From Candidatus Woesearchaeota archaeon (lineage in GTDB: Archaea > Nanobdellota > Nanobdellia > Woesearchaeales > UBA12501): DNA of 64,000 nucleotides. This document shows positions 21,629 through 37,169 of the stretch, piece after piece; the first letter of the stretch is position 1, and each line of letters opens with the position of its first letter. Made by a program: the position numbers and the translations under genes. The stretch spans positions 65,345 through 129,344 of the forward strand of contig JAUSFM010000009.1 of NCBI GenBank assembly GCA_030651375.1. The letters are read 5' to 3'. The notes below the pieces were generated by a model. It saw only the letters and a list, made by a program, of their open reading frames with translations. It made no database searches and was not told where the DNA came from.

Positions 21629-22474
21629 ATGGATCAAAAAACTGCTTTGGTCGTGTTTGAAGACAAGAAAATACGAAGAATCTGGCATAATGACGAATGG
21701 TATTTCTCTGTTGTTGATATAATCGGTGTACTCATTGATACTCCCGATGCTCGGAACTACTGGAAAGTTCTCAAACATCGTTTATTAAAGGAAGGAAGTG
21801 AAGTGGTTACAAAATGTAACCAGTTGAAATTACCCGCCCCGGATGGTAAACTAAGGGAAACCGACTGTGCGAACACCAAAAACATGTTCAGAATCATCCA
21901 AACAATACCTTCTCCCCGTGCAGAAACGTTTAAGATGTGGCTCTCTCAAGTCGGCTACGAGCGCGTCCAAGAAATCGAAAATCCGGAATTAGGCCAAGAC
22001 CGCATTAAAAAATATTATGAGCTGAAAGGCTATCCCCAAGACTGGATTGACAAGCGCCTTCGGGGAATTGCTATTCGCCAAGAACTCACCGATGAATGGA
22101 AAAACAGAGGCGTTGGTGAACAGCGTGAGTACGCCATCCTCACCAATGAGATTTCACAGGCAACATTTGGCGTTCCCATCAAAACGCACAAGGAAATCAA
22201 AGGCCTTGACCCGAAATTCAAGAACCAAAACCTGCGCGACCACATGTCTGACCTCGAACTTATTTTTTCAATGCTGGGCGAACGGCTGACCACTGAAGCA
22301 GCGCGCAAGAAAGACGTTCACGGTTTTACCGAGAATCTTGAAACAGCACAAGAAGGCGGCGCGGTTGCCGGCCGCGCGCGTACCGACGCTGAAAAGACTT
22401 TAGGCATTGCTGTTGTTTCTCCAGAAAATGCACTTGATATTGTTCACCAAAAGAAGCGCATAGAAAAAAAGTGA
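21629..22474 (+). CDS. BRO-N domain (phage antirepressor-like) protein
   Basis: IRRIWHNDEWYFSVVDII, RNYWKVLK, IIQTIPSPRAETFKMWL and NLRDHM motifs; TTTATATA 30 nt upstream. Confidence 0.85.
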   Translation: MDQKTALVVFEDKKIRRIWHNDEWYFSVVDIIGVLIDTPDARNYWKVLKHRLLKEGSEVVTKCNQLKLPAPDGKLRETDCANTKNMFRIIQTIPSPRAETFKMWLSQVGYERVQEIENPELGQDRIKKYYELKGYPQDWIDKRLRGIAIRQELTDEWKNRGVGEQREYAILTNEISQATFGVPIKTHKEIKGLDPKFKNQNLRDHMSDLELIFSMLGERLTTEAARKKDVHGFTENLETAQEGGAVAGRARTDAEKTLGIAVVSPENALDIVHQKKRIEKK

Positions 22475-24640: not shown

Positions 24641-24750
24641 CTTCCCTTTCAACATAAAAAATATAAAAAATTCATAAAAATTCATTCTTGAGTACTAACA
24701 AACCTTTTTATATCAATCTGCCTGTGTACTACTCACAAGGGGGTTGATTG

Positions 24751-26832
24751 ATGGCGAATAAGCATTTTCAGCGCATGGACAAAGTTCTTGGCCTCCCGCC
24801 TGCGCCGCATGGTGCACCTGCCAAAGAAAAAAATGCCAGCCATCACCATCCCGAACATACCTCTCCTGCTTCACCTACTGCAACGCATAGGCATGGTTTT
24901 CTCGCGCGATTCAAAAAGCACCCATCGCATCCCTCTATTCAAAACGCTCCTGCCGGTGCTTATCCGAGTGACTTCGCACAACAGGAGCGCGCTGACGTTG
25001 ACGAGCTGAAAAAGCACCAGATTGAGCTCGATCACCTCGCACTTCAACAGCAGGCCAGAGAACAAGCTCGAGAAGAGCAAGAGCCTACCGGCGCGGAAAA
25101 ATATCTTCTCAAGGAAAAAGAAAAACTGCTCAAAGAGCGGTTCACGCTTGAAGGCGACATTGTTGCGCTCACGAAACGTCGCGCCCAGCTTGTTGGCCAG
25201 ATGCGAGTCGGCATCACTGAAGAAGAAAAAAAAGCCCGAACAAAAATTGAAAGCTCCCTGCGCGGCCTCGCGAACGAGCGCGAACGGCTCCTCACCGTGG
25301 TCAAAAATCTCAAGCCGCAGGCTGATGAGCTCCGCCGGCAGATGTCACCTAGTTTTTTCACCATCGAAAAGCATGAAAAAGAACTCGCAGCGCGCGAAGA
25401 AAAAATATCGCTTGCTGACGCACGATTGAAAAAAATCAGCGATGAGCTCCGCCACCATGAATTTGAGCTCGGAAAAAAACAGGCAGGCCTTGCCCATGAA
25501 GAGCGCGAGCTCACTGAACAGCAGCGCGCGCTCAAGGAACGGCTTGCACAGGAAAGCCAGCGCGTTGCGCTCATGCTCGCGGAAAAAGAAGCGCTGCTCA
25601 AAAACAAGTACAAAATATGGGAGCAACAGATTGACCGGCGCGAGCACGCAATCGCCGGTGCCGAGCGAAACTTCAACAAGGAAAAAGGAAAACTCTACCT
25701 TGAATTTGAAAAAGAGCACGAAAAACTCGGCCACAGCCTCGAAGAAGAGCGCACCAAGCTCTACGGCGACTTGCAGCAGCAGAAAGACCATCTCAGCCGG
25801 GATCTCGTCGATCTGGAAACCAAAAAGCGACAGCTTGAGCAGGCAGTGCTCGAGAAAAAAGAGACCATTCACGATATCGCTGAAACTGAACGCCTGCTCA
25901 ATGAAAAAGAAGAGCATCTGCTCAACAAAATCCGGATGCTTGAGACGGACGAGCATCGCCTCCACTCTCGCGAGAATGAGATTATCGGCAAAATCAAACA
26001 GCTCGAGAGCGACCAGCAGCTGCTCGATGACAAGGAAAACGAGCTCATTGACGTGCTGAAAAAACTGGATATGCGTGAAGGCGAGCTGCGTAATCATGAG
26101 CGTATGCTGAATGTCAAGGGCAACGAACTCACGGCTCGGGAGCATGACATCCAGAAAAAAATGGACGAGGCACAAGAAAAGCTTGACGCCATCAAAACGA
26201 ATAATTCACTCAAGCTGAACACCGCCGAGCTCGAAAAGGCCGCCACTAAAATCGTCGGTGAAATTGAATCTCTCGCACACAAAAAAGAATCTCTCATCAA
26301 ACAGCAAACACTCCAGCACGACATTGAGGCGCTGCAAAAATCAAAAAAACTCATTGCAGCCGAACTTGAAAAAGAGCGGGGCGCGCTCGAGCAGGAGATC
26401 AACAAGCTCGTTGCCAAAGTTGCTGACATGGAACAGGTCTTTGTCGCTGACGACCGGCTCAAGCAGCGCCAGGACTTCATGGAACGGAAAGAAGATGCGC
26501 TTGAGCAGGAGCATGCCCACATTCAGGAGCAGCTCAACCAGCTTGAAACCAACAGCATAAACGCGGTTGCAGCATTGTCATCAGTTCAGCAGCAGAAAAA
26601 TACTGCAAAAGAGATTTTCGAGGCCGACTCGCGCGAAAAAGTTGAGATCTACGCAATGATTGAGCAGGCGCGCGACGCCATTGTCGCCGGCACCTTCGAT
26701 CTTGCCAAGCAAATCTACGCGGCGATTCAGGAAGCGTACAAAACATTCAACCTTGCTGAAGCAGACCGCCGGAAAATTTACTTTGATGTGGTTGAGCTCA
26801 AGACGGACATTGAGCTCGGCGCGCTCTGCTGA
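24751..26832 (+). CDS. Long coiled-coil protein
   Basis: About 550 aa of E/K/L/Q-rich heptad-like sequence with a His/Pro-rich N-terminus; no Walker motifs. Confidence 0.8.
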   Translation: MANKHFQRMDKVLGLPPAPHGAPAKEKNASHHHPEHTSPASPTATHRHGFLARFKKHPSHPSIQNAPAGAYPSDFAQQERADVDELKKHQIELDHLALQQQAREQAREEQEPTGAEKYLLKEKEKLLKERFTLEGDIVALTKRRAQLVGQMRVGITEEEKKARTKIESSLRGLANERERLLTVVKNLKPQADELRRQMSPSFFTIEKHEKELAAREEKISLADARLKKISDELRHHEFELGKKQAGLAHEERELTEQQRALKERLAQESQRVALMLAEKEALLKNKYKIWEQQIDRREHAIAGAERNFNKEKGKLYLEFEKEHEKLGHSLEEERTKLYGDLQQQKDHLSRDLVDLETKKRQLEQAVLEKKETIHDIAETERLLNEKEEHLLNKIRMLETDEHRLHSRENEIIGKIKQLESDQQLLDDKENELIDVLKKLDMREGELRNHERMLNVKGNELTAREHDIQKKMDEAQEKLDAIKTNNSLKLNTAELEKAATKIVGEIESLAHKKESLIKQQTLQHDIEALQKSKKLIAAELEKERGALEQEINKLVAKVADMEQVFVADDRLKQRQDFMERKEDALEQEHAHIQEQLNQLETNSINAVAALSSVQQQKNTAKEIFEADSREKVEIYAMIEQARDAIVAGTFDLAKQIYAAIQEAYKTFNLAEADRRKIYFDVVELKTDIELGALC

Positions 26833-26896
26833 TTTTTGTGTTTTTTTGTGCTCATTTTTCTTGTTGTACGCTCTATTGTCTCGATGTACATTCATC

Positions 26897-26952
26897 ATTT
26901 TGTTTTCTCGTTTTGTTTCTCGTTTTGTTTCTTGTTTTGTTTCTTGTTTTCT
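26897..26952 (+). repeat. 12-bp tandem repeat GTTTTGTTTCT(C/T) upstream of the parA-like gene
   Basis: Full units at 26910-26921, 26922-26933 and 26934-26945 with degenerate flanking copies. Confidence 0.8.
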
Positions 26953-27052
26953 ACAATCAAAATATTTATAAACCAGTGGCGAGTGTGATGTGTTGAAACC
27001 TGTATACACTTAAAAGAGAAAAAGAAAAAATCAGCCAAAAAGAGGGGATAGC

Positions 27053-27862
27053 ATGAGAAAAATCTGCATTATTAACCAAAAAGGCGGCGTGGCAAAAACA
27101 ACCACCGCTGTAAACCTCGGCGTTGGTCTTGCCAAGGAAGGAAAAAAAGTTCTCATTATCGACCTTGATGCGCAAGGAAACGTCGGCACCTGCCTGCCAG
27201 CAGAGTCAAAAAAAGACCTGTACGACTTTCTGGTTGAAAACGCCGACATCCGCGAGTGCATCTCCGGCGTCACCGAAAATCTCGACCTTATCAAAAGCAG
27301 GGAAACACTGGCAAAAGCCGAGCTCATTCTCGTGGGCGAAAGCTCCCGTGAAATGACACTTCGGAGAAAACTGCAAAACCTTGCAGGCTATGATTACGTG
27401 CTGCTTGACTGCCCGCCGAGCCTCGGCCTGCTGAACCAGAACGCCATGCTGTTTGCAACCGAAGCGCTTATTCCGGCATCCACCGACATTCTCGGGATTG
27501 ATGCGCTGCGAAAAATGCGCTTTATTGTTGACAAAATCAATGACGTGTTCGGCCACAGCCTGACCATCAGCAAGGTGGTTCCCACGCTCTACGATGTACG
27601 CAATAAAGTGTGCAATACCGTGCTGAAACAAATGCAGAGCGAGTTCTACGAGCTGGTCTCTGACCCGATTCGTGTCAATGCAACGCTCAAAGAGGCGCCG
27701 GCAGAGAAGAAGTCAATCTTCGACTACGCCCCAAACTCGCGCGGTGCTGAAGACTACCGCAAGCTCGTCAAGCAAGTATTGCGCGACGAGGAGAAATACG
27801 TCAAACTTGCGCGCTCTCCCGCGTCAATGCGGATGCAAGTGAAAGAAGCGGTTATTGGATAA
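27053..27862 (+). CDS. ParA/Soj family ATPase
   Basis: Deviant Walker A KGGVAKTTT, IDLDAQGN, DCPPSLG and IRVNATLKEAP motifs; GAGGGG RBS. Confidence 0.92.
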   Translation: MRKICIINQKGGVAKTTTAVNLGVGLAKEGKKVLIIDLDAQGNVGTCLPAESKKDLYDFLVENADIRECISGVTENLDLIKSRETLAKAELILVGESSREMTLRRKLQNLAGYDYVLLDCPPSLGLLNQNAMLFATEALIPASTDILGIDALRKMRFIVDKINDVFGHSLTISKVVPTLYDVRNKVCNTVLKQMQSEFYELVSDPIRVNATLKEAPAEKKSIFDYAPNSRGAEDYRKLVKQVLRDEEKYVKLARSPASMRMQVKEAVIG

Positions 27863-28473: not shown

Positions 28474-29826
28474 CTATTTCTGGTACAAATCAGGATATTC
28501 TTTAACAAGCGCTTGGCGCATTTTTTCCTTGGCGCGGTTTTCGAGCTGCCTCGTTCGCTCACGGGTGATGCCCAACTGGTCTCCAATTGCCTCGAGTGTC
28601 ATTGGCTCTTCGCGGAGCAGGTGGCAGTCAACAATATATTTTTCGCGTTCGTCCAGTACATGAAGTACCCCGCGAATTGCCTGATTGGCAAATGGGGCGT
28701 TGGGAGTAATCATCTCTTCCGGGGTTGGAGCATTTGACGCAACCCTTGAATATAAATTCTTGTCGTCAGCTGTTAGGCTGTCAAGAGACGCATCACCATC
28801 TGCCAAGCGCTGCTGCATGCCTCTTACTGACTTTGGCGAAACGTTAAAGTGTGCAGCAATCTCTTCAGGTGTTGCTTCATGGTCTTCATATAATAATTCA
28901 GGCATACGGCTTGTTCCTACTTTTGGCAGCAGATAATATAATTTTCTTTGCACTTGGCTTGTTCCTATCTTCACCATTCTTCTGTTCGCTATGTTGTCAG
29001 CATAGATTTGTGCTTTTATCCAATGCACGGCATAGGTGATAAAATTCTTGCCTTTTTTAGGGTCATATTTCCGCGCGGCGCTCATGGCGCCCAAATAGCC
29101 ACTGCTCACTGATTCATCCCATGCTTGTTTGTTCGTACGAGGGTGTATGCCCATCTGATGTACGACCTGATAGACAAAGTGTACTGATGACTCAACCAGG
29201 CGCTTAACCGCTTCTTTTCCCTCTTCACTGTCCGGGCCGTACGCTTGTACCGTGTGGCCCCATTCATACTGTTGCTCTTTTAATGCCTGTCTATCTTCCA
29301 AAGGTAGTTTTTGTGCACGTTGAGGCATTGGTTTTTTCAATTTCTTAACCGGAAGCCGGACAATCTCTGCTTCCGGCGGCGTTTCATAAGGTGTCCTGTC
29401 AAATGCGGTCGTGATGAAACGTTCGAGAATAAAATCAAGTGAACTGACAGACACATGCTCATTTCGTACCTCAATCTCCCCTTTTTCTTTCAGATAGTGG
29501 AGTCTCTCTCTCACATTTGTCTCTTCGAGCTTCACGCCACCAATTTTTTGGAGTACGAGATCATCAAGCGGAATTTCAGTTGCAAAGTGTTCTGCTTTTG
29601 ATGGGTCTTCTGCAATCATCTGTGCGACAATTGAGCCGACAAAATAATAGGGCTCTTGAGAAAAAGAATACAGGGGAAATGCTCGGTCTGCATAGCGTTG
29701 GAGGCCAAGAGCAATAACTGTTTCTGTTGACATGGTATCAAGAAGTGGAAGTGCTTGCAGCTCTTTACGTAGATGAGGGGGAAGTTCGCTTGAACCCTGC
29801 TTTAAAAAAGGGAGCACCGTTGCCAT
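28474..29826 (-). CDS. RNA polymerase sigma-70 family factor (RpoH/sigma-32-like) fused to an unknown N-terminal domain
   Basis: Region 2 GYLGAMSAARKYDPKKGKNFITYAVHWIKAQI; RpoH-box-like VKIGTSQVQRKLYY; region 3 EEIAAHFNVS...DASLD; region 4 LDEREKYIV...TLEAIGDQLGITRERTRQLE. Confidence 0.9.
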   Translation of the reverse strand: MATVLPFLKQGSSELPPHLRKELQALPLLDTMSTETVIALGLQRYADRAFPLYSFSQEPYYFVGSIVAQMIAEDPSKAEHFATEIPLDDLVLQKIGGVKLEETNVRERLHYLKEKGEIEVRNEHVSVSSLDFILERFITTAFDRTPYETPPEAEIVRLPVKKLKKPMPQRAQKLPLEDRQALKEQQYEWGHTVQAYGPDSEEGKEAVKRLVESSVHFVYQVVHQMGIHPRTNKQAWDESVSSGYLGAMSAARKYDPKKGKNFITYAVHWIKAQIYADNIANRRMVKIGTSQVQRKLYYLLPKVGTSRMPELLYEDHEATPEEIAAHFNVSPKSVRGMQQRLADGDASLDSLTADDKNLYSRVASNAPTPEEMITPNAPFANQAIRGVLHVLDEREKYIVDCHLLREEPMTLEAIGDQLGITRERTRQLENRAKEKMRQALVKEYPDLYQK

Positions 29827-29849
29827 AAAGTTCTTGTGTGGTGTTTATT

Positions 29850-29860
29850 ATTTTAAAAAG
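29850..29860 (-). promoter_or_regulatory. Archaeal TATA-like box for the RpoH-like gene
   Basis: Minus strand CTTTTTAAAAT, about 30 nt before the ATG at 29826; same spacing as housekeeping genes in this window. Confidence 0.6.
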
Positions 29861-29894
29861 GTGTTGGTACTGATTGGCTAATCTCGTAATTTCA

Positions 29895-31193
29895 TTATTC
29901 AAAATCATCAGGATTCAAACAACGGCGAAGATTTACTAAGGCTGCCGAATGGAGTTGGCTGGCGCGAGATTCAGTGAAACCCAAAATGCGGCCGATCTCT
30001 TTTAAATTTAAATCTTCTTTGTAATACAATCTTAGAAAAATTCTCATATTTTGTTGTGTTTCCGGCCTACAGGGAACTCCTTCTGCAGTTGAAAAGGTAA
30101 TGCTATCCAACGCGCCCCACAGCATTGATTCTTCTTGGCGTAGCGCTGCCATCGTGTCAAGATAGACACTTTTTTCATCAGGTACTACTCGGGGAACATC
30201 AATATATTTTCCATTTTTATCTTTAGGCTTATCATCCAAACTCATAACCCTTGGTGCGCTCACTTGTGCTTCGTCATATTGTTCTTGTGTAATGCCGGCA
30301 CGCTCAAGAATCTGTTCGAGTGGAATATCCGTTGTTCCTGTTTCAAACAGCAATGCAGCGCGCGCATCTTCCACATCCTTGAGCCGTTCACGCACGCTGC
30401 GAGAAACCCCATCAAGGTGGCGTAAATAATCCAATATCGTGCCGCGGATGCGCATTTCTGCATACGGCCTGAAACCACCTTGTTTTGCATCAAATTTTTT
30501 TTTGGCGTCCAAAAGGCCGAGGTATCCTTCACTGATTAAATCATCAACCTCAACGCTGCGCGGCAAGCGTTGAGCAATGCGATATGCTAAACGTTTTACC
30601 AGCGGCATATACTCCGTCGCAAACGCTTCTTCTTCGCCATCGCGTATCTCTCTCCTTTTTTTCTCTTTTGTTTCTCTTGTTTCTTTCTTCGGCATTCCCA
30701 CTACTTTTTTTTCATATTCAACCGGCAGCCCATACGTTGCATACAGCACATCCCACAAGACAGCATTAACCAACTGCAGGGGAACATTCCCTTCCGGAAG
30801 AATGCCGGCTTCTGTCAGATACGCAAGCCGTTCGTCGACGGTGTTTTTGTTTAGTCCAACTCCTCCCAACTGGGTGACGGTAAATTCGCTGTGCGGTATG
30901 CCTGCGAGTGTATCGCCAGCTTGTTTTCGTAGCTCCGGATATTCCTGCAGTGCCGCAGCAATGACTGACGCGACAAAATACGTTGGCTCGCCGGAAAAAG
31001 AATACAGCGGAAAGCTTTTGTCGACTATTCTTTCCGGCGTGCCGCGCTGGAGCAATTCGGCTCTGGAATATGCCCTGAACATTCCTCCGACAGCGAGCTG
31101 ATACGCCGTTGCTGTCATAAATGTTTCTGCGAGCTGCTCCAGACTTCTATCTTGCTGCGGTGCAGGAAAGGGGAGAACGGTTGCGGCGGACAT
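29895..31193 (-). CDS. RNA polymerase sigma-70 family factor (FliA/WhiG/sigma-28-like) fused to an unknown N-terminal domain
   Basis: YMPLVKRLAYRIAQRLPRSVEVDDLISEGYLGLLDAKKKFD...YAEMRIRGTILDYLR...SRSVR; region 4 LYYKEDLNLKEIGRILGFTESRASQLH. Confidence 0.92.
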   Translation of the reverse strand: MSAATVLPFPAPQQDRSLEQLAETFMTATAYQLAVGGMFRAYSRAELLQRGTPERIVDKSFPLYSFSGEPTYFVASVIAAALQEYPELRKQAGDTLAGIPHSEFTVTQLGGVGLNKNTVDERLAYLTEAGILPEGNVPLQLVNAVLWDVLYATYGLPVEYEKKVVGMPKKETRETKEKKRREIRDGEEEAFATEYMPLVKRLAYRIAQRLPRSVEVDDLISEGYLGLLDAKKKFDAKQGGFRPYAEMRIRGTILDYLRHLDGVSRSVRERLKDVEDARAALLFETGTTDIPLEQILERAGITQEQYDEAQVSAPRVMSLDDKPKDKNGKYIDVPRVVPDEKSVYLDTMAALRQEESMLWGALDSITFSTAEGVPCRPETQQNMRIFLRLYYKEDLNLKEIGRILGFTESRASQLHSAALVNLRRCLNPDDFE

Positions 31194-31205
31194 GGCATCA
31201 CTCGT

Positions 31206-33026
31206 TTATTTTTCTAACTCAAAGAGCACTTCTTTCGGTGCAACCAGTTCTTTATCAGGTACGATTTCTCGGTCAAATGTAGAGTCTAACGCTTCTGATA
31301 CGGAATGTAATGGTGCAAAGCCTCCCGGCGATTGTTCTTCTTCCTTCTCGTCATCGCCCAAGAAGTCAATGTCCTCAATGGATCCATACGTTTTGTCTGT
31401 TTCAGAAACTATTTCTGGCCTACGCCCTGTTCTTTCTTTTGGCCTATACTGCTCATCACGTTCCCGATAGAATCTTCCAATGGGAGTTTCAGTATCCGCG
31501 CACTGCATTTCCTCAACGTGATACCCATGTTTCAGCATTGCAATGACTCCTGCTTCCAAATCCTCCCGCGTTATCAGCTCACCACTTTTTTTCGGTTGTA
31601 GGTATGCTGGTTTTTTTCCGGTGACTGCACCCAATCTATCAGTAATATCCTGCTCCGGCACGAGCGTGTACTTGGGCAACCGGTCAACCAACTCGCGCGA
31701 AACATACGGCATTCTTCTGACACCATACGATTCTTCATATTCCCGCACGAGATTCAATGCCAGTGCCGCCGGCAAAATTCTCATTTCATCAAGGTCAGGA
31801 AGGGGAATCTCACACACTTCCTGTACTCGCCGAGGATCAAAATATTCAACGCCATTAAATTCTATCGGCCTGCACCCGATATACAGCTCTGACAGCATTT
31901 TTCCGATATTTCTGCCGTGCATATCAAAGCGAGATTTTGCCGCACGATACATAAGATAGCTTGCCACTTCCTGCCCCGTTATCGGATAAAATGTTTCAAG
32001 TACTTGTCGGTATGCCTCAATAAAGTCTTTCTTTTTCAGTGTTCCGGCACTGCCTCCCATGGTTCGTAACCCACCATATCTTTTCAACAATTTCTGCATG
32101 CCATAGTTAGGAAAGCCGGGGTCAATGGAGTATTTTAATGCCGTCATGACCTCAAGGGTTTGGGTGTACGTTAATTGTTTCGGTGCCTCAGCAAGTATCT
32201 GTTTTGATGTTTTTCCTCCTTCGTCCAATTCTTTTTCAAACTCCTCTAACTCTTCAGGTGTCATCTCTGCAAGTTCGTGTTCAAATTCCCTGACAAGATT
32301 TACGCCATAACTTTTATGTTTTAATGTGTTGGGTGAACTCGTTGCTCCTATGTGATGATTTGTCGCTGGTTTTTTACGCTTGTACAGAGATTTATCAGGA
32401 ATGTCTTGTTTTAATTTTTTAAGCGCGCGTTCCAAGCTTCGTGACGGCGTGCCAAAGTCACGCGTGCGCAAAGTGACTTTTCTTTGTATGATAAAGGCAT
32501 CGTCACTATTCCCTGTTTCTTCTTCTCCTTCTGGTTTTCGGTATGCTTCAATGGGCATAATATCCGCAGCCGGATGCTCGCTTTCATAGGCTGGTGGATT
32601 TCCAAATGTCATTGCAATGAAATCTCGGAGTACAAAATCTATGGTGCTTATCGAGACATTTTGGTTAGGAAGCATTGCAATCACACCATTTTCTCTCAAA
32701 TAGTCAAGCCTCTCTCTCTCATTTGCCTCTTCCAGCCGCACACCGCCAATATTCTGCAGCACGAGACGTTCCAGTGGAATTTCAGTTGAAAATAAGGGTG
32801 CCTGTGCAGGATCGTCCACCAGTATCTGCGCAACAATGGAGCCGACAAAATATTCTGGCTCTTGAGAAAAAGAATGCAGTGGAAATGCGCGCTCTGCATA
32901 GCGTTGCAGCCCAAGACTTTGCACTGTTTCTTGTGACAGCCGGTCAAGGAGACTAAATTCTTGCAGCTCTCGTAGAGTGCGCGGAGAAATTTCTTCAGGT
33001 TTGCTGAATTGAAGAACATCGGCCAT
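31206..33026 (-). CDS. Hypothetical protein sharing the N-terminal domain of the two sigma fusions
   Basis: LGLQRYAERAFPLHSFSQEPEYFVGSIVAQ matches LGLQRYADRAFPLYSFSQEPYYFVGSIVAQ of 28474-29826; GGTGA RBS before ATG 33026. Confidence 0.8.
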   Translation of the reverse strand: MADVLQFSKPEEISPRTLRELQEFSLLDRLSQETVQSLGLQRYAERAFPLHSFSQEPEYFVGSIVAQILVDDPAQAPLFSTEIPLERLVLQNIGGVRLEEANERERLDYLRENGVIAMLPNQNVSISTIDFVLRDFIAMTFGNPPAYESEHPAADIMPIEAYRKPEGEEETGNSDDAFIIQRKVTLRTRDFGTPSRSLERALKKLKQDIPDKSLYKRKKPATNHHIGATSSPNTLKHKSYGVNLVREFEHELAEMTPEELEEFEKELDEGGKTSKQILAEAPKQLTYTQTLEVMTALKYSIDPGFPNYGMQKLLKRYGGLRTMGGSAGTLKKKDFIEAYRQVLETFYPITGQEVASYLMYRAAKSRFDMHGRNIGKMLSELYIGCRPIEFNGVEYFDPRRVQEVCEIPLPDLDEMRILPAALALNLVREYEESYGVRRMPYVSRELVDRLPKYTLVPEQDITDRLGAVTGKKPAYLQPKKSGELITREDLEAGVIAMLKHGYHVEEMQCADTETPIGRFYRERDEQYRPKERTGRRPEIVSETDKTYGSIEDIDFLGDDEKEEEQSPGGFAPLHSVSEALDSTFDREIVPDKELVAPKEVLFELEK

Positions 33027-33059
33027 GCCTTTCACCGTTATTTTCTTCTTTTAAAAATA

Positions 33060-36000
33060 TTACTCAAGCAATCTCGGCGCCATGGCTTCAACATCGTTGA
33101 CATGCGCCAATCCGAAAAGCGTTTTTCCTGCCTTTCGCAGTTGAGTTTCAAGTGCATGATATCCTGCATCAGCAGGGACACCGTGTTGTGTCAGCACCTT
33201 CATGGTTTGGTTCTCATCAAGGAATCCAACCTGTTTCATCAATTCTGCCCGCGAATCATCGTAATGCATTGCCTGCGCCCATCCTGCTGCCAGCTTCCAA
33301 TATGCTTTTGAAAATACGTCATACCCTATGAGTTGTTGATCGCCCAACTTTTCCGTTGCCATATACTCCCGGATGTATTTTTCCAACTGTAGGTCTGGTT
33401 TTTCTCCATCAAGCAACAGCGCAGGCATGATGCGGTTCACAGGAATTTTTGTTCCATCCGATTTTTTCCATGAAAACGGCTCATACAAAATCGCCGCTGC
33501 AACAAAAGGAGAAACATGATACCCTTCTCCAGTCACTGCTTTTCGCATAGTGTCAGGGAATTGGCGTATGGCCGCGTTGATGCGCCCGGGTGTTACTTGC
33601 GGAGGCATCAATTCAGCAAGATCAGAGGTGAGCACAATATCTTCAACGCCGTAGGCGTGCTCTGCGTCATTGCCTTTCAGGACAATCTGGTCGGCTGCAA
33701 ATCTGCCTGATCTTCTCATGTACTCAAAGAGCCGCCGTGAAAATTCCGGCTGATATGCGGCCACAAGCAACGCGACGGCTTCTTCTTCATTCTTCGGTGC
33801 AGTGCTCAGGCGATACTGGTACACACCATCTTCGGCGCGCGGTGTTATTCGTGCGCCGAGAGAGCCGGATCTTCGTTCTGGCTGTACTAACACCGGTGTT
33901 TCTTCTCTTTTTGAAGGTGTTGTTCCTGCGGGAGCTGGTGCAGTATATCCTGTTGTTTCTGCCGCCGATGCTGGTGCAAGTGGTGCCTGTTCTCCTGCAG
34001 GCGATGCAACCTTTTCTTCCAGCGAGGGTATCACCACTTTTGTTCCCTTGGGAAGCCCGACAACATCTTCAACCGTTGTGCGTCCCGTCAATGATTCCAA
34101 TGCATAATCAAACGCTTTGAAATAGACTTCACGTTGGCGCGCCTTGATGTCTGATGCCGTTGGAGTGCCTGATTCAGGCGTAAAAAGATTTGTTTTTGAA
34201 TACACCTGTAGAAGTTCTGGGCCAAGAATAGCGTACAGTGCCGCATGGTTTGGCGGTGCTAATGGCTCTGGCTTAAGGTCAACTTCTGCCCATAATTTAA
34301 TTTTCAATGCCGTGCTTGCGGCGATGCCTAATCCTGATGCTTTTAATCTATGGGTATTGACAAACTCGTGCAGTTTTCCAACAGCTTTTTTCGTGACTTG
34401 AGCTGCAACAACATATTCCACAACCATGTTTGGCACATACAAATGTTGGTCATCAAATCGTATCCGGCGCTGTGCTGTATTATAGTATCCTTTCTCCAGA
34501 ATTTTATGCCGTAACGCCGTTGCGAGGTACGCCATTGCGTATGTGTCGTCGAATGGATGGGTTGATGATGAAGTGGCAGGAGCGGGAACTTCTGGGCGTG
34601 CTGAAGCTGGTGAAGCAGGAGCAGGAACCGAAACAAGTACGTCATCAATTGATGCAGCTATTGGTGTTGGCGCAGGAGCTGGCGATGGTGCCGGAGGAGG
34701 AACTGGTATTGGTGAGAGAGCTGGAGATGGCGCAGGGGCAGGTCGAGTGGCTGGAGAATCTACATTCGCGGATTCTGCCGCAACATAGTCACCCAACAAT
34801 GTGCCGCCTGCTTTCATCGTGTCGAAGGCGAGGTTGAATGATTCACGGAATCGCTGGCGGACAGGCGTGGCTGGTTTAGCGAATTTTTCAACAGCGGCAA
34901 AGTATTTTTGTCCTTGTAATCTTTGGATGGCTTCAAATGGCACACCAAAAAATCCAGCTATTTCTACATCCAAATATTTCTTTACATCTGTAAGATCACT
35001 CAGATGGATGGCAAGAATATCCTCCATCATTACTCCTGCAGGTGCATCATGATGATGGCGCAGCAATGGATGCTCTTTTCCTTTCCATTGTTGAAACGCC
35101 CCATCGGTTATTCTGGTTTTTAATAGTTCACGAACTTTGTAATACCGGGGAACATCCCCACTTTTAATCGGCTTGTGGCCGGGAAGCGTAATCATATCTG
35201 TCGTCGGATCATACAGCTTTTGATAGCGTATTCCCCTTTCTATTCCCTGCGCAAGATAGCGGAGTGGGTCGGTGAGAAGTAAATCATCGGACAGAACGAA
35301 TTTTCTTCCGGCAGATGCTGCTGAAGCGGCAGGATGTGGTGGTGCGGGCGCATCCGGTGCATCCGGTTCAACCACCGTATCAATCGTTGCGGCACGAGCT
35401 GCTATTCTCTGCTCTTCTGCTTCTGATGGTGCTTCACCAGCCACTGCGCCGCCGGTAAGCTCTTGATACCATACTGACTGGTGCTCCCGCACAATCGGAA
35501 ACAGTTGAGGAAGGAGATTATTGATGCTTGGCCAGTCAAGGTCAACGGTCTTTGCTTTTTTCAGTAAACCATCTTCCACTGCGCGATGTGCAAGGGCAGA
35601 ATCAATGCCGAGAGATGCTTCCAAATCAGCGTAGGTTCTGATGCGAACATCGCCCGCTGATTTGTAAAGCCCAAAGAATTTGACATCAAGGGGAGAGAAT
35701 TTTTGATGGAGGGAAAAGGGAACATGGCCAAAAGCGTCTGCATAGACTTCGTTAACATAGCGTTGGTATGACGTATAGCGAGCGTTATATCCATCGCTTC
35801 CTTCTCGTGCTTGGTGTGGGGTTACTGCAAGCAAAGGAATATCGGCAGGGGATGATGGGGTCAGTGTTTGGCTGTGCGCAACAAGTTGTTGGTGCTCGGC
35901 ATCGTAGCCAAGCATAATTCCTTCAGCAGTGTACTGGCCGGTTTGCACGAGGTGGCTAAACACAGCCTGCGCAAGTTCTTCGAGCAGGGGACGTGAAGGA

Positions 36001-37169
36001 ACAGAACGGGGAGAGGGAGGTGGAGCAGGAGTTACAGGAGCTGGTTCAACCGCTGGTACAGATTCAGGCACGCGTGGCGCTGGTTCAGCCACGCGTGGTG
36101 GCACTTGTTCTGGTGTTTCACTTTCATATTCTTTTACCGCCTTTTCCAATGCTGTGTCAAACACTTCAAAAAATACTTTTTCCTGCGCGGTTTTAAACCG
36201 GCTTGCATCTCTTGGCTTGTATTCGTGTTTCGGATTAAATACACCTGAATTATGTGCGTTGATTATTTCATCTTCAGAAGCACCAAATAAATCTGCAAGT
36301 TCATCGAGTGATAACGATTGTGTTGGTGTTTTACCAGGAGCACTTTCGCGCCATAATTTTACTTTGAGCACGTTTCGAGCTTCTGCACCGTCGTCTTTTC
36401 GTAATCCTTTACTATCCATATACTTGTGTGCTGTTCCACCTGTTGTAAATCCTGCTAAACTTTTTGCAATGCCATATCCAACAATATGGTCCGAATCATA
36501 TCTTATTCCTTCTGCAAATTTTATTTGTTTTCGTTCACCGTCATAATAGTCTTTGCGTATTCGTTCGTATAACCGTTCGACAAGAATGTCCTGCATATCT
36601 TCAGCTGTTGTATCTTTTGGCGGCGTCGGTTCTTTGTGAAGGGGTGCCGGTGCAATTGGTTCAGGTTCACGTTCACGAATAGGCGCTGGCACCGGTACAA
36701 CTATCTCGGGTGGTGCTGCCCTAGCCGGAGCTGCTGAAGCTGCTGCACGCTCCTCTCGTTCCGCCAAACGATTTCGTGTGCGTTCTGCCAGAGAATCCGT
36801 GCTCAATTCAATAACTTCAATCTGGCGATCGGATTGTTGAACATACGTGAGAAACAACGGTTGAGAAGAATCGCGCGCTTCAACATAGTGTGCTGCCTCT
36901 GAAAAAACACCGAGCGGAATGCCATTTGCTGCAACACCGACATCTTTTCCAACTGATTTTACTTCAATGGCAGTTCGTGAGATGAAACCATCAAGGCCGA
37001 CGATGCCGGTCGATCCGTGGTATGTTTTGTCAGGTGTTCCGTGCAGTTGAATTTCGAGTGGCCTGCCAAGTAAGGCAGCAGTAACTTCGTCAATGGTTGT
37101 TGTGGCACTCGTTGCAGAATCAAGCGGTATAATGCCTGCCCTTCCTACCTTAAACCAGTGTTCAGCCAT
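33060..37169 (-). CDS. Large (1369 aa) multidomain protein with diverged internal repeats and Pro/Ala linkers
   Basis: Uninterrupted 4.1-kb ORF with repeated blocks (e.g. LKVKLWRE / LKIKLWAE and VFFEVFDTALE / VYFKAFDYALE) separated by PAPAP-type linkers. Confidence 0.8.
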   Translation of the reverse strand: MAEHWFKVGRAGIIPLDSATSATTTIDEVTAALLGRPLEIQLHGTPDKTYHGSTGIVGLDGFISRTAIEVKSVGKDVGVAANGIPLGVFSEAAHYVEARDSSQPLFLTYVQQSDRQIEVIELSTDSLAERTRNRLAEREERAAASAAPARAAPPEIVVPVPAPIREREPEPIAPAPLHKEPTPPKDTTAEDMQDILVERLYERIRKDYYDGERKQIKFAEGIRYDSDHIVGYGIAKSLAGFTTGGTAHKYMDSKGLRKDDGAEARNVLKVKLWRESAPGKTPTQSLSLDELADLFGASEDEIINAHNSGVFNPKHEYKPRDASRFKTAQEKVFFEVFDTALEKAVKEYESETPEQVPPRVAEPAPRVPESVPAVEPAPVTPAPPPSPRSVPSRPLLEELAQAVFSHLVQTGQYTAEGIMLGYDAEHQQLVAHSQTLTPSSPADIPLLAVTPHQAREGSDGYNARYTSYQRYVNEVYADAFGHVPFSLHQKFSPLDVKFFGLYKSAGDVRIRTYADLEASLGIDSALAHRAVEDGLLKKAKTVDLDWPSINNLLPQLFPIVREHQSVWYQELTGGAVAGEAPSEAEEQRIAARAATIDTVVEPDAPDAPAPPHPAASAASAGRKFVLSDDLLLTDPLRYLAQGIERGIRYQKLYDPTTDMITLPGHKPIKSGDVPRYYKVRELLKTRITDGAFQQWKGKEHPLLRHHHDAPAGVMMEDILAIHLSDLTDVKKYLDVEIAGFFGVPFEAIQRLQGQKYFAAVEKFAKPATPVRQRFRESFNLAFDTMKAGGTLLGDYVAAESANVDSPATRPAPAPSPALSPIPVPPPAPSPAPAPTPIAASIDDVLVSVPAPASPASARPEVPAPATSSSTHPFDDTYAMAYLATALRHKILEKGYYNTAQRRIRFDDQHLYVPNMVVEYVVAAQVTKKAVGKLHEFVNTHRLKASGLGIAASTALKIKLWAEVDLKPEPLAPPNHAALYAILGPELLQVYSKTNLFTPESGTPTASDIKARQREVYFKAFDYALESLTGRTTVEDVVGLPKGTKVVIPSLEEKVASPAGEQAPLAPASAAETTGYTAPAPAGTTPSKREETPVLVQPERRSGSLGARITPRAEDGVYQYRLSTAPKNEEEAVALLVAAYQPEFSRRLFEYMRRSGRFAADQIVLKGNDAEHAYGVEDIVLTSDLAELMPPQVTPGRINAAIRQFPDTMRKAVTGEGYHVSPFVAAAILYEPFSWKKSDGTKIPVNRIMPALLLDGEKPDLQLEKYIREYMATEKLGDQQLIGYDVFSKAYWKLAAGWAQAMHYDDSRAELMKQVGFLDENQTMKVLTQHGVPADAGYHALETQLRKAGKTLFGLAHVNDVEAMAPRLLE

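Follow-up and report, generated by a model that had tools for sequence, protein, structure and literature searches.

A swappable domain on bacterial-type sigma factors of a Woesearchaeota archaeon and its possible role as a protein-binding tag

Three adjacent genes of a Candidatus Woesearchaeota archaeon, here called A, B, and C, share a domain of about 135 residues that is joined to a different cargo in each and, across its family, most often to bacterial-type sigma factors. The genes lie in a 64,000-nucleotide (nt) stretch of contig JAUSFM010000009.1 (assembly GCA_030651375.1, forward-strand positions 65,345 to 129,344), which is referred to below as the window. We found that the domain is a swappable module that has been moved between cargos. 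The reading that we prefer, at a probability of roughly 40%, is that it tags bacterial-type transcription factors destined for a bacterial host, acting as an acidic module that binds protein and pairs with itself.

Three adjacent genes share a conserved domain

Gene A (28474..29826, minus strand) encodes 450 amino acids (aa), comprising the domain, a basic/Pro linker, and an RpoH (sigma-32)-like sigma factor. Gene B (29895..31193, minus strand) encodes 432 aa, with the domain, a Lys/Glu linker, and a FliA/WhiG (sigma-28)-like sigma factor, and gene C (31206..33026, minus strand) encodes 606 aa counted from its ATG, with the domain followed by an orphan cargo. The domain copies occupy 29383..29784 (residues ~15 to 148 of A), 30711..31130 (residues ~22 to 161 of B, a second subfamily), and 32583..32990 (residues ~13 to 148 of C), all on the minus strand; there is no fourth copy in the archaeon's genome (G000). 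The initial annotation had picked out the starts MATVLPF, MSAATVLPF, and MADVLQF and several shared motifs, and these are indeed common to the three minus-strand open reading frames (ORFs). Its estimate that the A and C copies are about half identical and still alike as DNA, with the FliA-fused copy more diverged, agrees with the alignments: identity between A and C is 55.6% over 169 aa (E value = 2.7 × 10−50) and 74.8% over 302 nt, and that between B and C is 38% over 113 aa (E value = 2.7 × 10−17). The ~150-aa domain that it described is real, with a folded core of ~135 aa (residues ~15 to 148 of A) between disordered flanks. The N-terminal position holds for A, B, and C but not as a family rule, and, as annotated, no signal peptide or transmembrane helix was seen by eye.

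Compared with a related strain (contig L018; gene order B-A, 89% aa identity), the ratio of nonsynonymous to synonymous substitution rates (dN/dS) of the domain was 0.13 in B and 0.24 in A, and the domain is under purifying selection; in the sigma segments of gene B, synonymous changes were too few to judge dN/dS. Across genera, domain copies are 18 to 42% identical around a fixed core. The copies of A and C are 58% identical, whereas the copy in C is 25% identical to that of its same-genus orthologue. Between the two strains, dS was 0.02 in region 2 of B (29895-30640) versus 0.39 in the domain, hinting at recombination within gene B.

The domain is carried mostly by sigma factors

When 1.84 billion representatives were searched with a profile of the domain, 25 matches were obtained, 24 of them credible clusters; three fragments of 100 to 112 aa (P0140, P0152, and P0157) were set aside, leaving 21 nonfragment clusters. 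P0158 was dropped as a member (4110 aa, repetitive, with a match spanning 38 positions), as was L019 as a homologue, its match lying on the strand opposite the real genes of a GC-rich bacterial contig. P0156, which has a partial domain, was excluded from the 22-row alignment used below. Word-seeded homologue searches were insensitive here and returned the query alone or 4 proteins.

Sigma-70 domains are present in 16 of the 21 clusters (including P0002 and P0006). By subtype, these are 8 FliA-like, 5 extracytoplasmic function (ECF), 2 RpoH-like, and 1 RpoD, with the subtypes of P0139 to P0155 set from the Pfam pattern and from motifs judged by eye. One cluster is a sigma-54 activator (P0003), and four carry orphan cargo (three C-type proteins and P0156, whose orphan cargo is another). 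The annotated link to transcription-related cargo is thereby upheld (17/21), whereas its framing as a polymorphic effector or toxin family finds no support: the activator ATPase is the only toxin or enzyme cargo by Pfam, and the domain can be C-terminal, as it is in 2 of the 21 (the activator P0003 and the FliA-like P0155). The domain lies directly ahead of region 1.2 in P0002 and P0139, and P0145 and P0151 have further helix-turn-helix (HTH) repeats.

We found the domain in 5 of 17 genomes of the archaeon's family and in none of 394 genomes of other families in the order; the tallies over the 201 order genomes below include four unpublished genomes (G198, G128, G147, and G137). Members with a taxon label are assigned to Woesearchaeota or Nanoarchaeia (P0002, P0003, P0149, and P0151), apart from cluster P0150, which includes one 211-aa partial labeled Bdellovibrionales on a 1.2-kb contig. 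This label is likely due to misbinning, since P0150 is identical at 218 of 289 positions to a protein of genome G008 whose contig carries archaeal polymerase genes.

The best database matches of the sigma cargo are bacterial (FliA at 47%). The cargo of A (region 2 at residues 210 to 275 and region 4 at 387 to 438) has rpoH_proteo as its best NCBIfam family at 145.9 bits, under the cutoff of 323.1, and retains the HWIKA helix and the QRKL box, and it is therefore called RpoH-like. Similarly, the cargo of B (residues 193 to 423) scores 167.8 bits against FliA_WhiG, under the cutoff of 189.6, and is called FliA-like; it is 35 to 47% identical to bacterial FliA. The cargo of C has no Pfam family but is conserved in P0004 and P0147. 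It had no match in the PDB or the ESM Atlas and no relatives among 400 other genomes sampled from the order, and its single-sequence model had a predicted local distance difference test score (pLDDT) of 34.5.

The domain has been exchanged between cargos

A quick tree of the 22 rows contained two domain subfamilies (support of 99), with FliA and ECF cargos in each. Approximately unbiased (AU) tests rejected a single clade of FliA-borne copies (P value = 0.0005), of ECF-borne copies (P value = 2 × 10−7), and of RpoH-borne copies (A, its counterpart L018_A, and the copy in genome G013; P value = 0.0002). A clade of C and its orthologue in genome G001 was compatible with the test (P value = 0.147). 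As the trees reject one common history of domain and cargo, the domain is a swappable module that has moved between cargos.

Eleven of 22 members have the short N-terminal motif [VIL][VIL][PQEKHV]F, compared with 6 of 745 other ORFs of the archaeon; this contrast serves as a lead only, since the family had already been inspected when the motif was defined and the copies are kin. It stays N-terminal in P0155 despite the C-terminal domain. Most members also have, just after the domain, a second hydrophobic motif of the type Y-E-x-K-V-V-x-L that is similar to the N-terminal VLPF motif; in the window it lies at 29330-29385, 30680-30715, and 32530-32585 (minus strand), with low model confidence, and it is possibly a peptide binding in trans. 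Gene B starts with MSAAT (31179-31193, minus strand), and so do P0008 and P0009, the bacterial FliA proteins closest to it; this is either chance or a trace of domain insertion behind an ancestral start.

Predicted fold, charge, and dimerization

The AlphaFold2 model of the domain (7 rows) had a mean pLDDT of 80.4, about 90 in the core, and a predicted template modeling score of 0.73. It is an alpha/beta model with two winged-helix lobes, the last helix of which (residues 127 to 141) gives way to a low-confidence linker and the unrelated cargo. With an exhaustive structural aligner, lobe 2 (residues 82 to 148) matched CvkR (Z score = 5.4, root mean square deviation [rmsd] = 2.6, 58 residues aligned), Rv1828 (5.2), CarA (5.0), SoxR (4.7), CbpM (4.5), and a chain of the DafA complex (3.9), and it is called MerR-like because many MerR entries matched the same residue range. 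Lobe 1 (residues 29 to 76), taken from the whole-domain model, matched the excisionases Xis (Z score = 3.8, rmsd = 2.3, 45 residues aligned) and TorI (3.7). Foldseek found no match for the domain model in the PDB at E values up to 1 × 10−3, and the domain sequence matched no PDB sequence; PHROGs (best E value = 0.17) and the ESM Atlas (best E value = 0.85) contained no match either. The two lobes have no sequence similarity to each other. No catalogued family matches the domain, which the initial annotation rightly called unrecognized. As to whether it is a characterized fold of ordinary bacterial sigma factors, the predicted Xis/MerR winged helix is indeed a known fold but is not seen in those proteins, and by profile comparison the domain is not region 1.1.

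The net charge is negative in 21 of 22 domain copies and in 18 of 22 for lobe 2 alone. The MerR wing motif (R-x-x-x-G-[YFHQ]-R), present in Escherichia coli SoxR, CueR, ZntR, and MlrA, is missing in all 22 copies, and the Arg/His position of the recognition helix varies freely among them; R108 is retained in 19 of 22. Positions conserved in 75% or more of the copies hold mainly hydrophobic residues, Gly, or Pro and form no acidic patch. Charge by itself does not settle the question of DNA binding, since the N-terminal domain of CueR is near neutral. By MerR rules, that is, from its acidity and its lack of the wing motif, the domain is predicted not to be a DNA binder.

A homodimer prediction scored 0.48 versus 0.00 for the best control, with contact agreement of at least 86% and pLDDT of at least 79; this mark was attained by 20 of 30 solved pairs and by 1 of 23 single chains. 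In the predicted interface, the two strands of the FPLYSFSQEPYYF hairpin pair across chains. Among the roles that had been suggested for the domain, oligomerization thus gains support from modeling.

The sigma factors do not suit the archaeon's own polymerase

The archaeon's RNA polymerase is of the archaeal type only. At the clamp positions corresponding to E. coli beta' R275, E295, and A302, which a passage of PMC8321222 describes as residues needed for holoenzyme formation, it has I, L, and H, and so, judging from this alignment, it is without the sigma-docking residues. We scanned the genome with four sigma promoter consensuses. Observed versus simulated counts were 20 versus 17 to 23 for sigma-28, 3 versus 3 to 5 for sigma-32, 0 versus 0 to 2 for sigma-70, and 35 versus 17 to 30 for sigma-54, all of them judged not enriched, and 1146 upstream regions contained 0 to 1 matches. 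Taken together, the archaeal polymerase, the clamp residues, and the unenriched consensus sites argue that the target of these sigma factors is not in-house.

RpoD-, RpoH-, FliA-, and ECF-type sigma factors are all encoded in the genome, and the −10 and −35 DNA recognition helices are retained in A and B. Region 2.2 is intact in most of the other cargos aligned. The GAFTGA activators are intact in genomes G001 and G007; a sigma-54 DNA-binding domain was not found in the 94%-complete G007, which holds such an activator.

The archaeon also encodes an RpoD-like group 1 sigma factor of 740 aa (C16:235780-238002; L001 7781-10003) with a C-terminal HTH_3 domain, whose gene has Deltaproteobacteria matches at 64 to 66% in an exact-word scan of which 80 loci were kept. 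Its stand-alone ECF sigma factor (C13:68445-68639; L035 1204-1791) lies beside hisS and polymerase genes, and G001 has an ECF gene at the same site (L032). Three observations concern relatives: G013 has a stand-alone C-terminal fragment of sigma-54 (RpoN; L038 982-1986); a G001 protein (L039 1462-2592) ends in a well-conserved C-terminal domain of the bacterial RNA polymerase alpha subunit, before which a sigma-4-like helix was seen by eye; and membrane LysM and transglutaminase-like proteins in G013 (L010 4366-6743) are encoded divergently from two domain-bearing sigma genes.

A candidate partner and possible signs of a bacterial host or prey

Gene D (33060..37169, minus strand), directly upstream of C, encodes a 1369-aa repeat protein. 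Its last ~80 aa form a second module that is present in 4 of the 17 family genomes, each time adjoining a domain gene, and is absent from all 12 family genomes that lack the domain; as the four genes themselves went into the profile, the absences alone count as independent. The D module is missing from G013 despite its domain copies, and G001 has a second D-module copy elsewhere. The D repeat module and the domain are unrelated by hhalign. Gene order makes D a candidate partner of the domain. By eye, the N-terminal region of the RpoD-like sigma factor resembles the N terminus of D, and the ORF next to it (414 aa) resembles D modules. Adjoining the C orthologue in G001 (L012 10486-17067) are a GHKL ATPase fused to the D C-terminal module and a GAFTGA activator of 768 aa that has additional repeats; a similar ATPase precedes an RpoD-like gene in G010 (L021).

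The archaeon has two lytic transglycosylases with twin-arginine leaders, identified by eye (C3:140249-141337 and C16:117186-118178), and lytic transglycosylase (SLT) domains occur in 12 of 17 family genomes and 123 of 201 order genomes. Two further large proteins (C3:41832-44414 and C16:44395-47937) have SLT-like domains. Passages of three papers (PMC9723730, PMC12352652, and PMC10936187) propose predation on bacteria by Woesearchaeota.

The locus and its surroundings

Genome G000 is a 1.30-Mb assembly, 100% complete, and is contained in a groundwater sequencing run. The 195-kb contig with the locus also bears housekeeping genes, such as those for RNA cyclase and EF-1beta, and the gene order is upheld in a related strain, where contigs of runs X2 and X3, which are possibly one data set, bridge C-B and B-A. 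Gene B starts 12 nt past the stop of gene C, and there are no small ORFs between C, B, and A. Archaeal TATA-like boxes were seen by eye on the minus strand at 29850..29859, 24 to 33 nt 5′ of A, and at 33049..33057, 23 to 31 nt 5′ of C; that of A was also seen in the related strain. The GC content at third codon positions (GC3) of the locus is below the median (7th to 18th percentile among 472 ORFs). On the plus strand, adjoining the sigma locus, are genes for a 694-aa coiled-coil protein and then a ParA-family ATPase (24748-27862). Farther away (21629-22474, plus strand) is a Bro-N domain protein, whose near-identical N terminus recurs on another ORF of the genome.

Relation to known systems

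Sigma-70 region 1.1 is a small all-helical fold. Like it, the domain is acidic and, in most members, precedes the sigma core, but it is about twice the size and, in the model, alpha/beta and two-lobed. Region 1.1 is confined to the N termini of group 1 sigma factors, whereas the domain occurs on ECF, FliA, RpoH, activator, and orphan proteins and at either end. The region 1.1 profile (PF03979) had no match on the domain copies of the 5 genomes at E values up to 10, and region 1.1 is not among the 50 structural matches listed for the domain model, an absence that does not by itself decide the point. An acidic stretch in C that looked like region 1.1 by eye was likewise given no support by comparison with PF03979.

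MerR regulators share with lobe 2 an N-terminal winged-helix fold, by prediction, but they have a long dimerization coiled coil and an effector domain after the HTH, both of which the domain lacks. Xis/TorI excisionases share the predicted fold of lobe 1. Neither the MerR N-terminal domain nor Xis/TorI has a sequence-level match to the domain (Pfam; hhalign probability of 1.6%). CbpM and DafA share with the domain an acidic, MerR-like three-helix wing fold, predicted for the domain, without DNA contact residues; according to a passage of PMC4063869, CbpM is a MerR fold that lost its DNA-binding residues and binds protein. They are small stand-alone chaperone modulators that bind a J-domain co-chaperone encoded beside them, and CbpM dimerizes via a coiled coil. 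The domain, by contrast, has two lobes, lacks a long coiled coil, occurs in fusion proteins, and has no known J-domain binding.

In polymorphic toxin systems, a constant module is combined with variable toxin cargo, an immunity gene next to it, and a known secretion system. The domain is like them in its constant module, exchanged cargo (AU tests), and tandem locus. It differs in that its cargos are transcription factors or, in the four orphans, have no Pfam family, that no known trafficking domain is present, and that the module can sit at either end. Phage-encoded sigma factors offer a working analogy, that of a parasite with host-type sigma factors altering host transcription (a passage of PMC9429907), but they are expressed inside the host, whereas an archaeal cell would need protein delivery, which is hypothetical here. 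A passage of PMC8204110 reports sigma-70 genes of Woesearchaeota (fam00359), of unclear function, among DPANN with archaeal polymerase, and no anti-sigma factors identified there. These genes resemble ours in being bacterial sigma-70 genes in such genomes; the passage describes no accessory domain, whereas here one module sits on RpoD-, RpoH-, FliA-, and ECF-type sigma factors and a sigma-54 activator. Our literature search found nothing on the domain or on archaeal sigma delivery, and it did not cover Supplementary Table 3 of PMC8204110, which may list these proteins. The fold type and the sigma-70 genes of Woesearchaeota are already known; the domain family and its proposed use appear to be new.

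A tag for a bacterial host and the alternatives

If the domain is a tag on transcription factors meant for a bacterial host, the sigma genes would be expressed from archaeal TATA promoters, and the tag would dimerize the cargos or dock them on a shared partner, for which the giant protein D is the candidate. The sigma factors would then reach a bacterial host or prey and load on its core polymerase, where they might redirect or jam housekeeping, heat shock, flagellar, and envelope stress transcription. A broader and more doubtful proposal is that Woesearchaeota live as parasites of bacteria and reprogram host transcription by delivering captured sigma factors and sigma-54 activators, with the domain as an address tag or assembly module.

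Several points weigh against a host-directed tag. The fold Z scores are all below 8 and thus modest. Because the predicted interface pairs the strands of one monomer hairpin across chains, the dimer result may reflect intrachain contacts that were reassigned as a domain swap, or it may be a true swapped dimer. Region 2.2 of A is altered (D/E/S/S at E. coli positions 402/403/406/407), and A may bind core polymerase poorly. Sigma-70 region 2 is found in 85 of 201 order genomes, against the far narrower distribution of the domain; since many order genomes have sigma factors but no domain, not all of these sigma factors need it, and the archaeon's own RpoD-like and ECF sigma factors are without it. 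The number of cargo changes on the tree, 11, is just slightly lower than with shuffled labels, 26 of 300 shuffles giving 11 or fewer; the tree is a quick one in which 10 of 19 branches are open. Two of the 5 domain genomes yielded no SLT (G007, 94% complete, and G013, 72% complete). Neither a delivery machine nor a secretion signal was identified, no systematic search having been made.

The alternative that survives best, although we regard it as unlikely, is that the proteins are in-house regulators, in which the domain dimerizes captured sigma DNA-binding domains into core-free repressors or chromatin proteins acting on the archaeon's own genome. The dimer prediction, the TATA-like promoters, the lack of an export signal by eye, and the further HTH repeats of P0145 and P0151 all fit this idea, as does the retention of the −10 and −35 helices in A while its region 2.2 is altered. 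However, the genome shows no enrichment of consensus sites for the four sigma types, most of the other cargos aligned keep region 2.2 intact, and a GAFTGA activator would be useless without a sigma-54 holoenzyme.

It is improbable that the domain is instead a built-in anti-sigma module, folding onto the DNA-binding surfaces of the sigma factor, as region 1.1 does, until removed or displaced. This would accord with its negative charge, with its place just ahead of region 1.2 in P0002 and P0139, and with the DPANN anti-sigma factors being unidentified in the cited passage of PMC8204110. Yet the same domain is joined to an AAA+ activator and to orphan cargo, sits at either end of the protein, and has neither PF03979 similarity nor a conserved acidic patch.

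Its tandem Xis/MerR lobes could also form an extra DNA-binding arm that tethers the cargo by binding DNA nonspecifically or polymerizing on it, and DNA-binding MerR N-terminal domains and excisionases do make up most of the best structural matches, with R108 widely retained; the acidity, the missing wing motif, and the variable recognition helix make this quite improbable. Least probable of all is a passenger, a stability or expression leader with no specific partner that was spread among the tandem genes by gene conversion: the closeness of the A and C copies relative to the C orthologue and the low GC3 of the locus would suit it, but purifying selection, the fixed core kept across genera, and the strong bias toward transcription cargo do not.

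Bacterial sigma factors are retained in 85 of the 201 genomes of this order even though the polymerase is archaeal. The presence of the domain on several sigma types and on a sigma-54 activator provides a direct handle on the reason for this retention, as both its partner and its effect on the holoenzyme are testable. If the domain is an in-house dimerizer, these sigma factors would have been repurposed as archaeal regulators. If it is a delivery tag, Woesearchaeota would be expected to have bacterial hosts and proteins to pass from one domain of life to another, and the delivery kit would be a cross-domain transcription effector system without a described counterpart.

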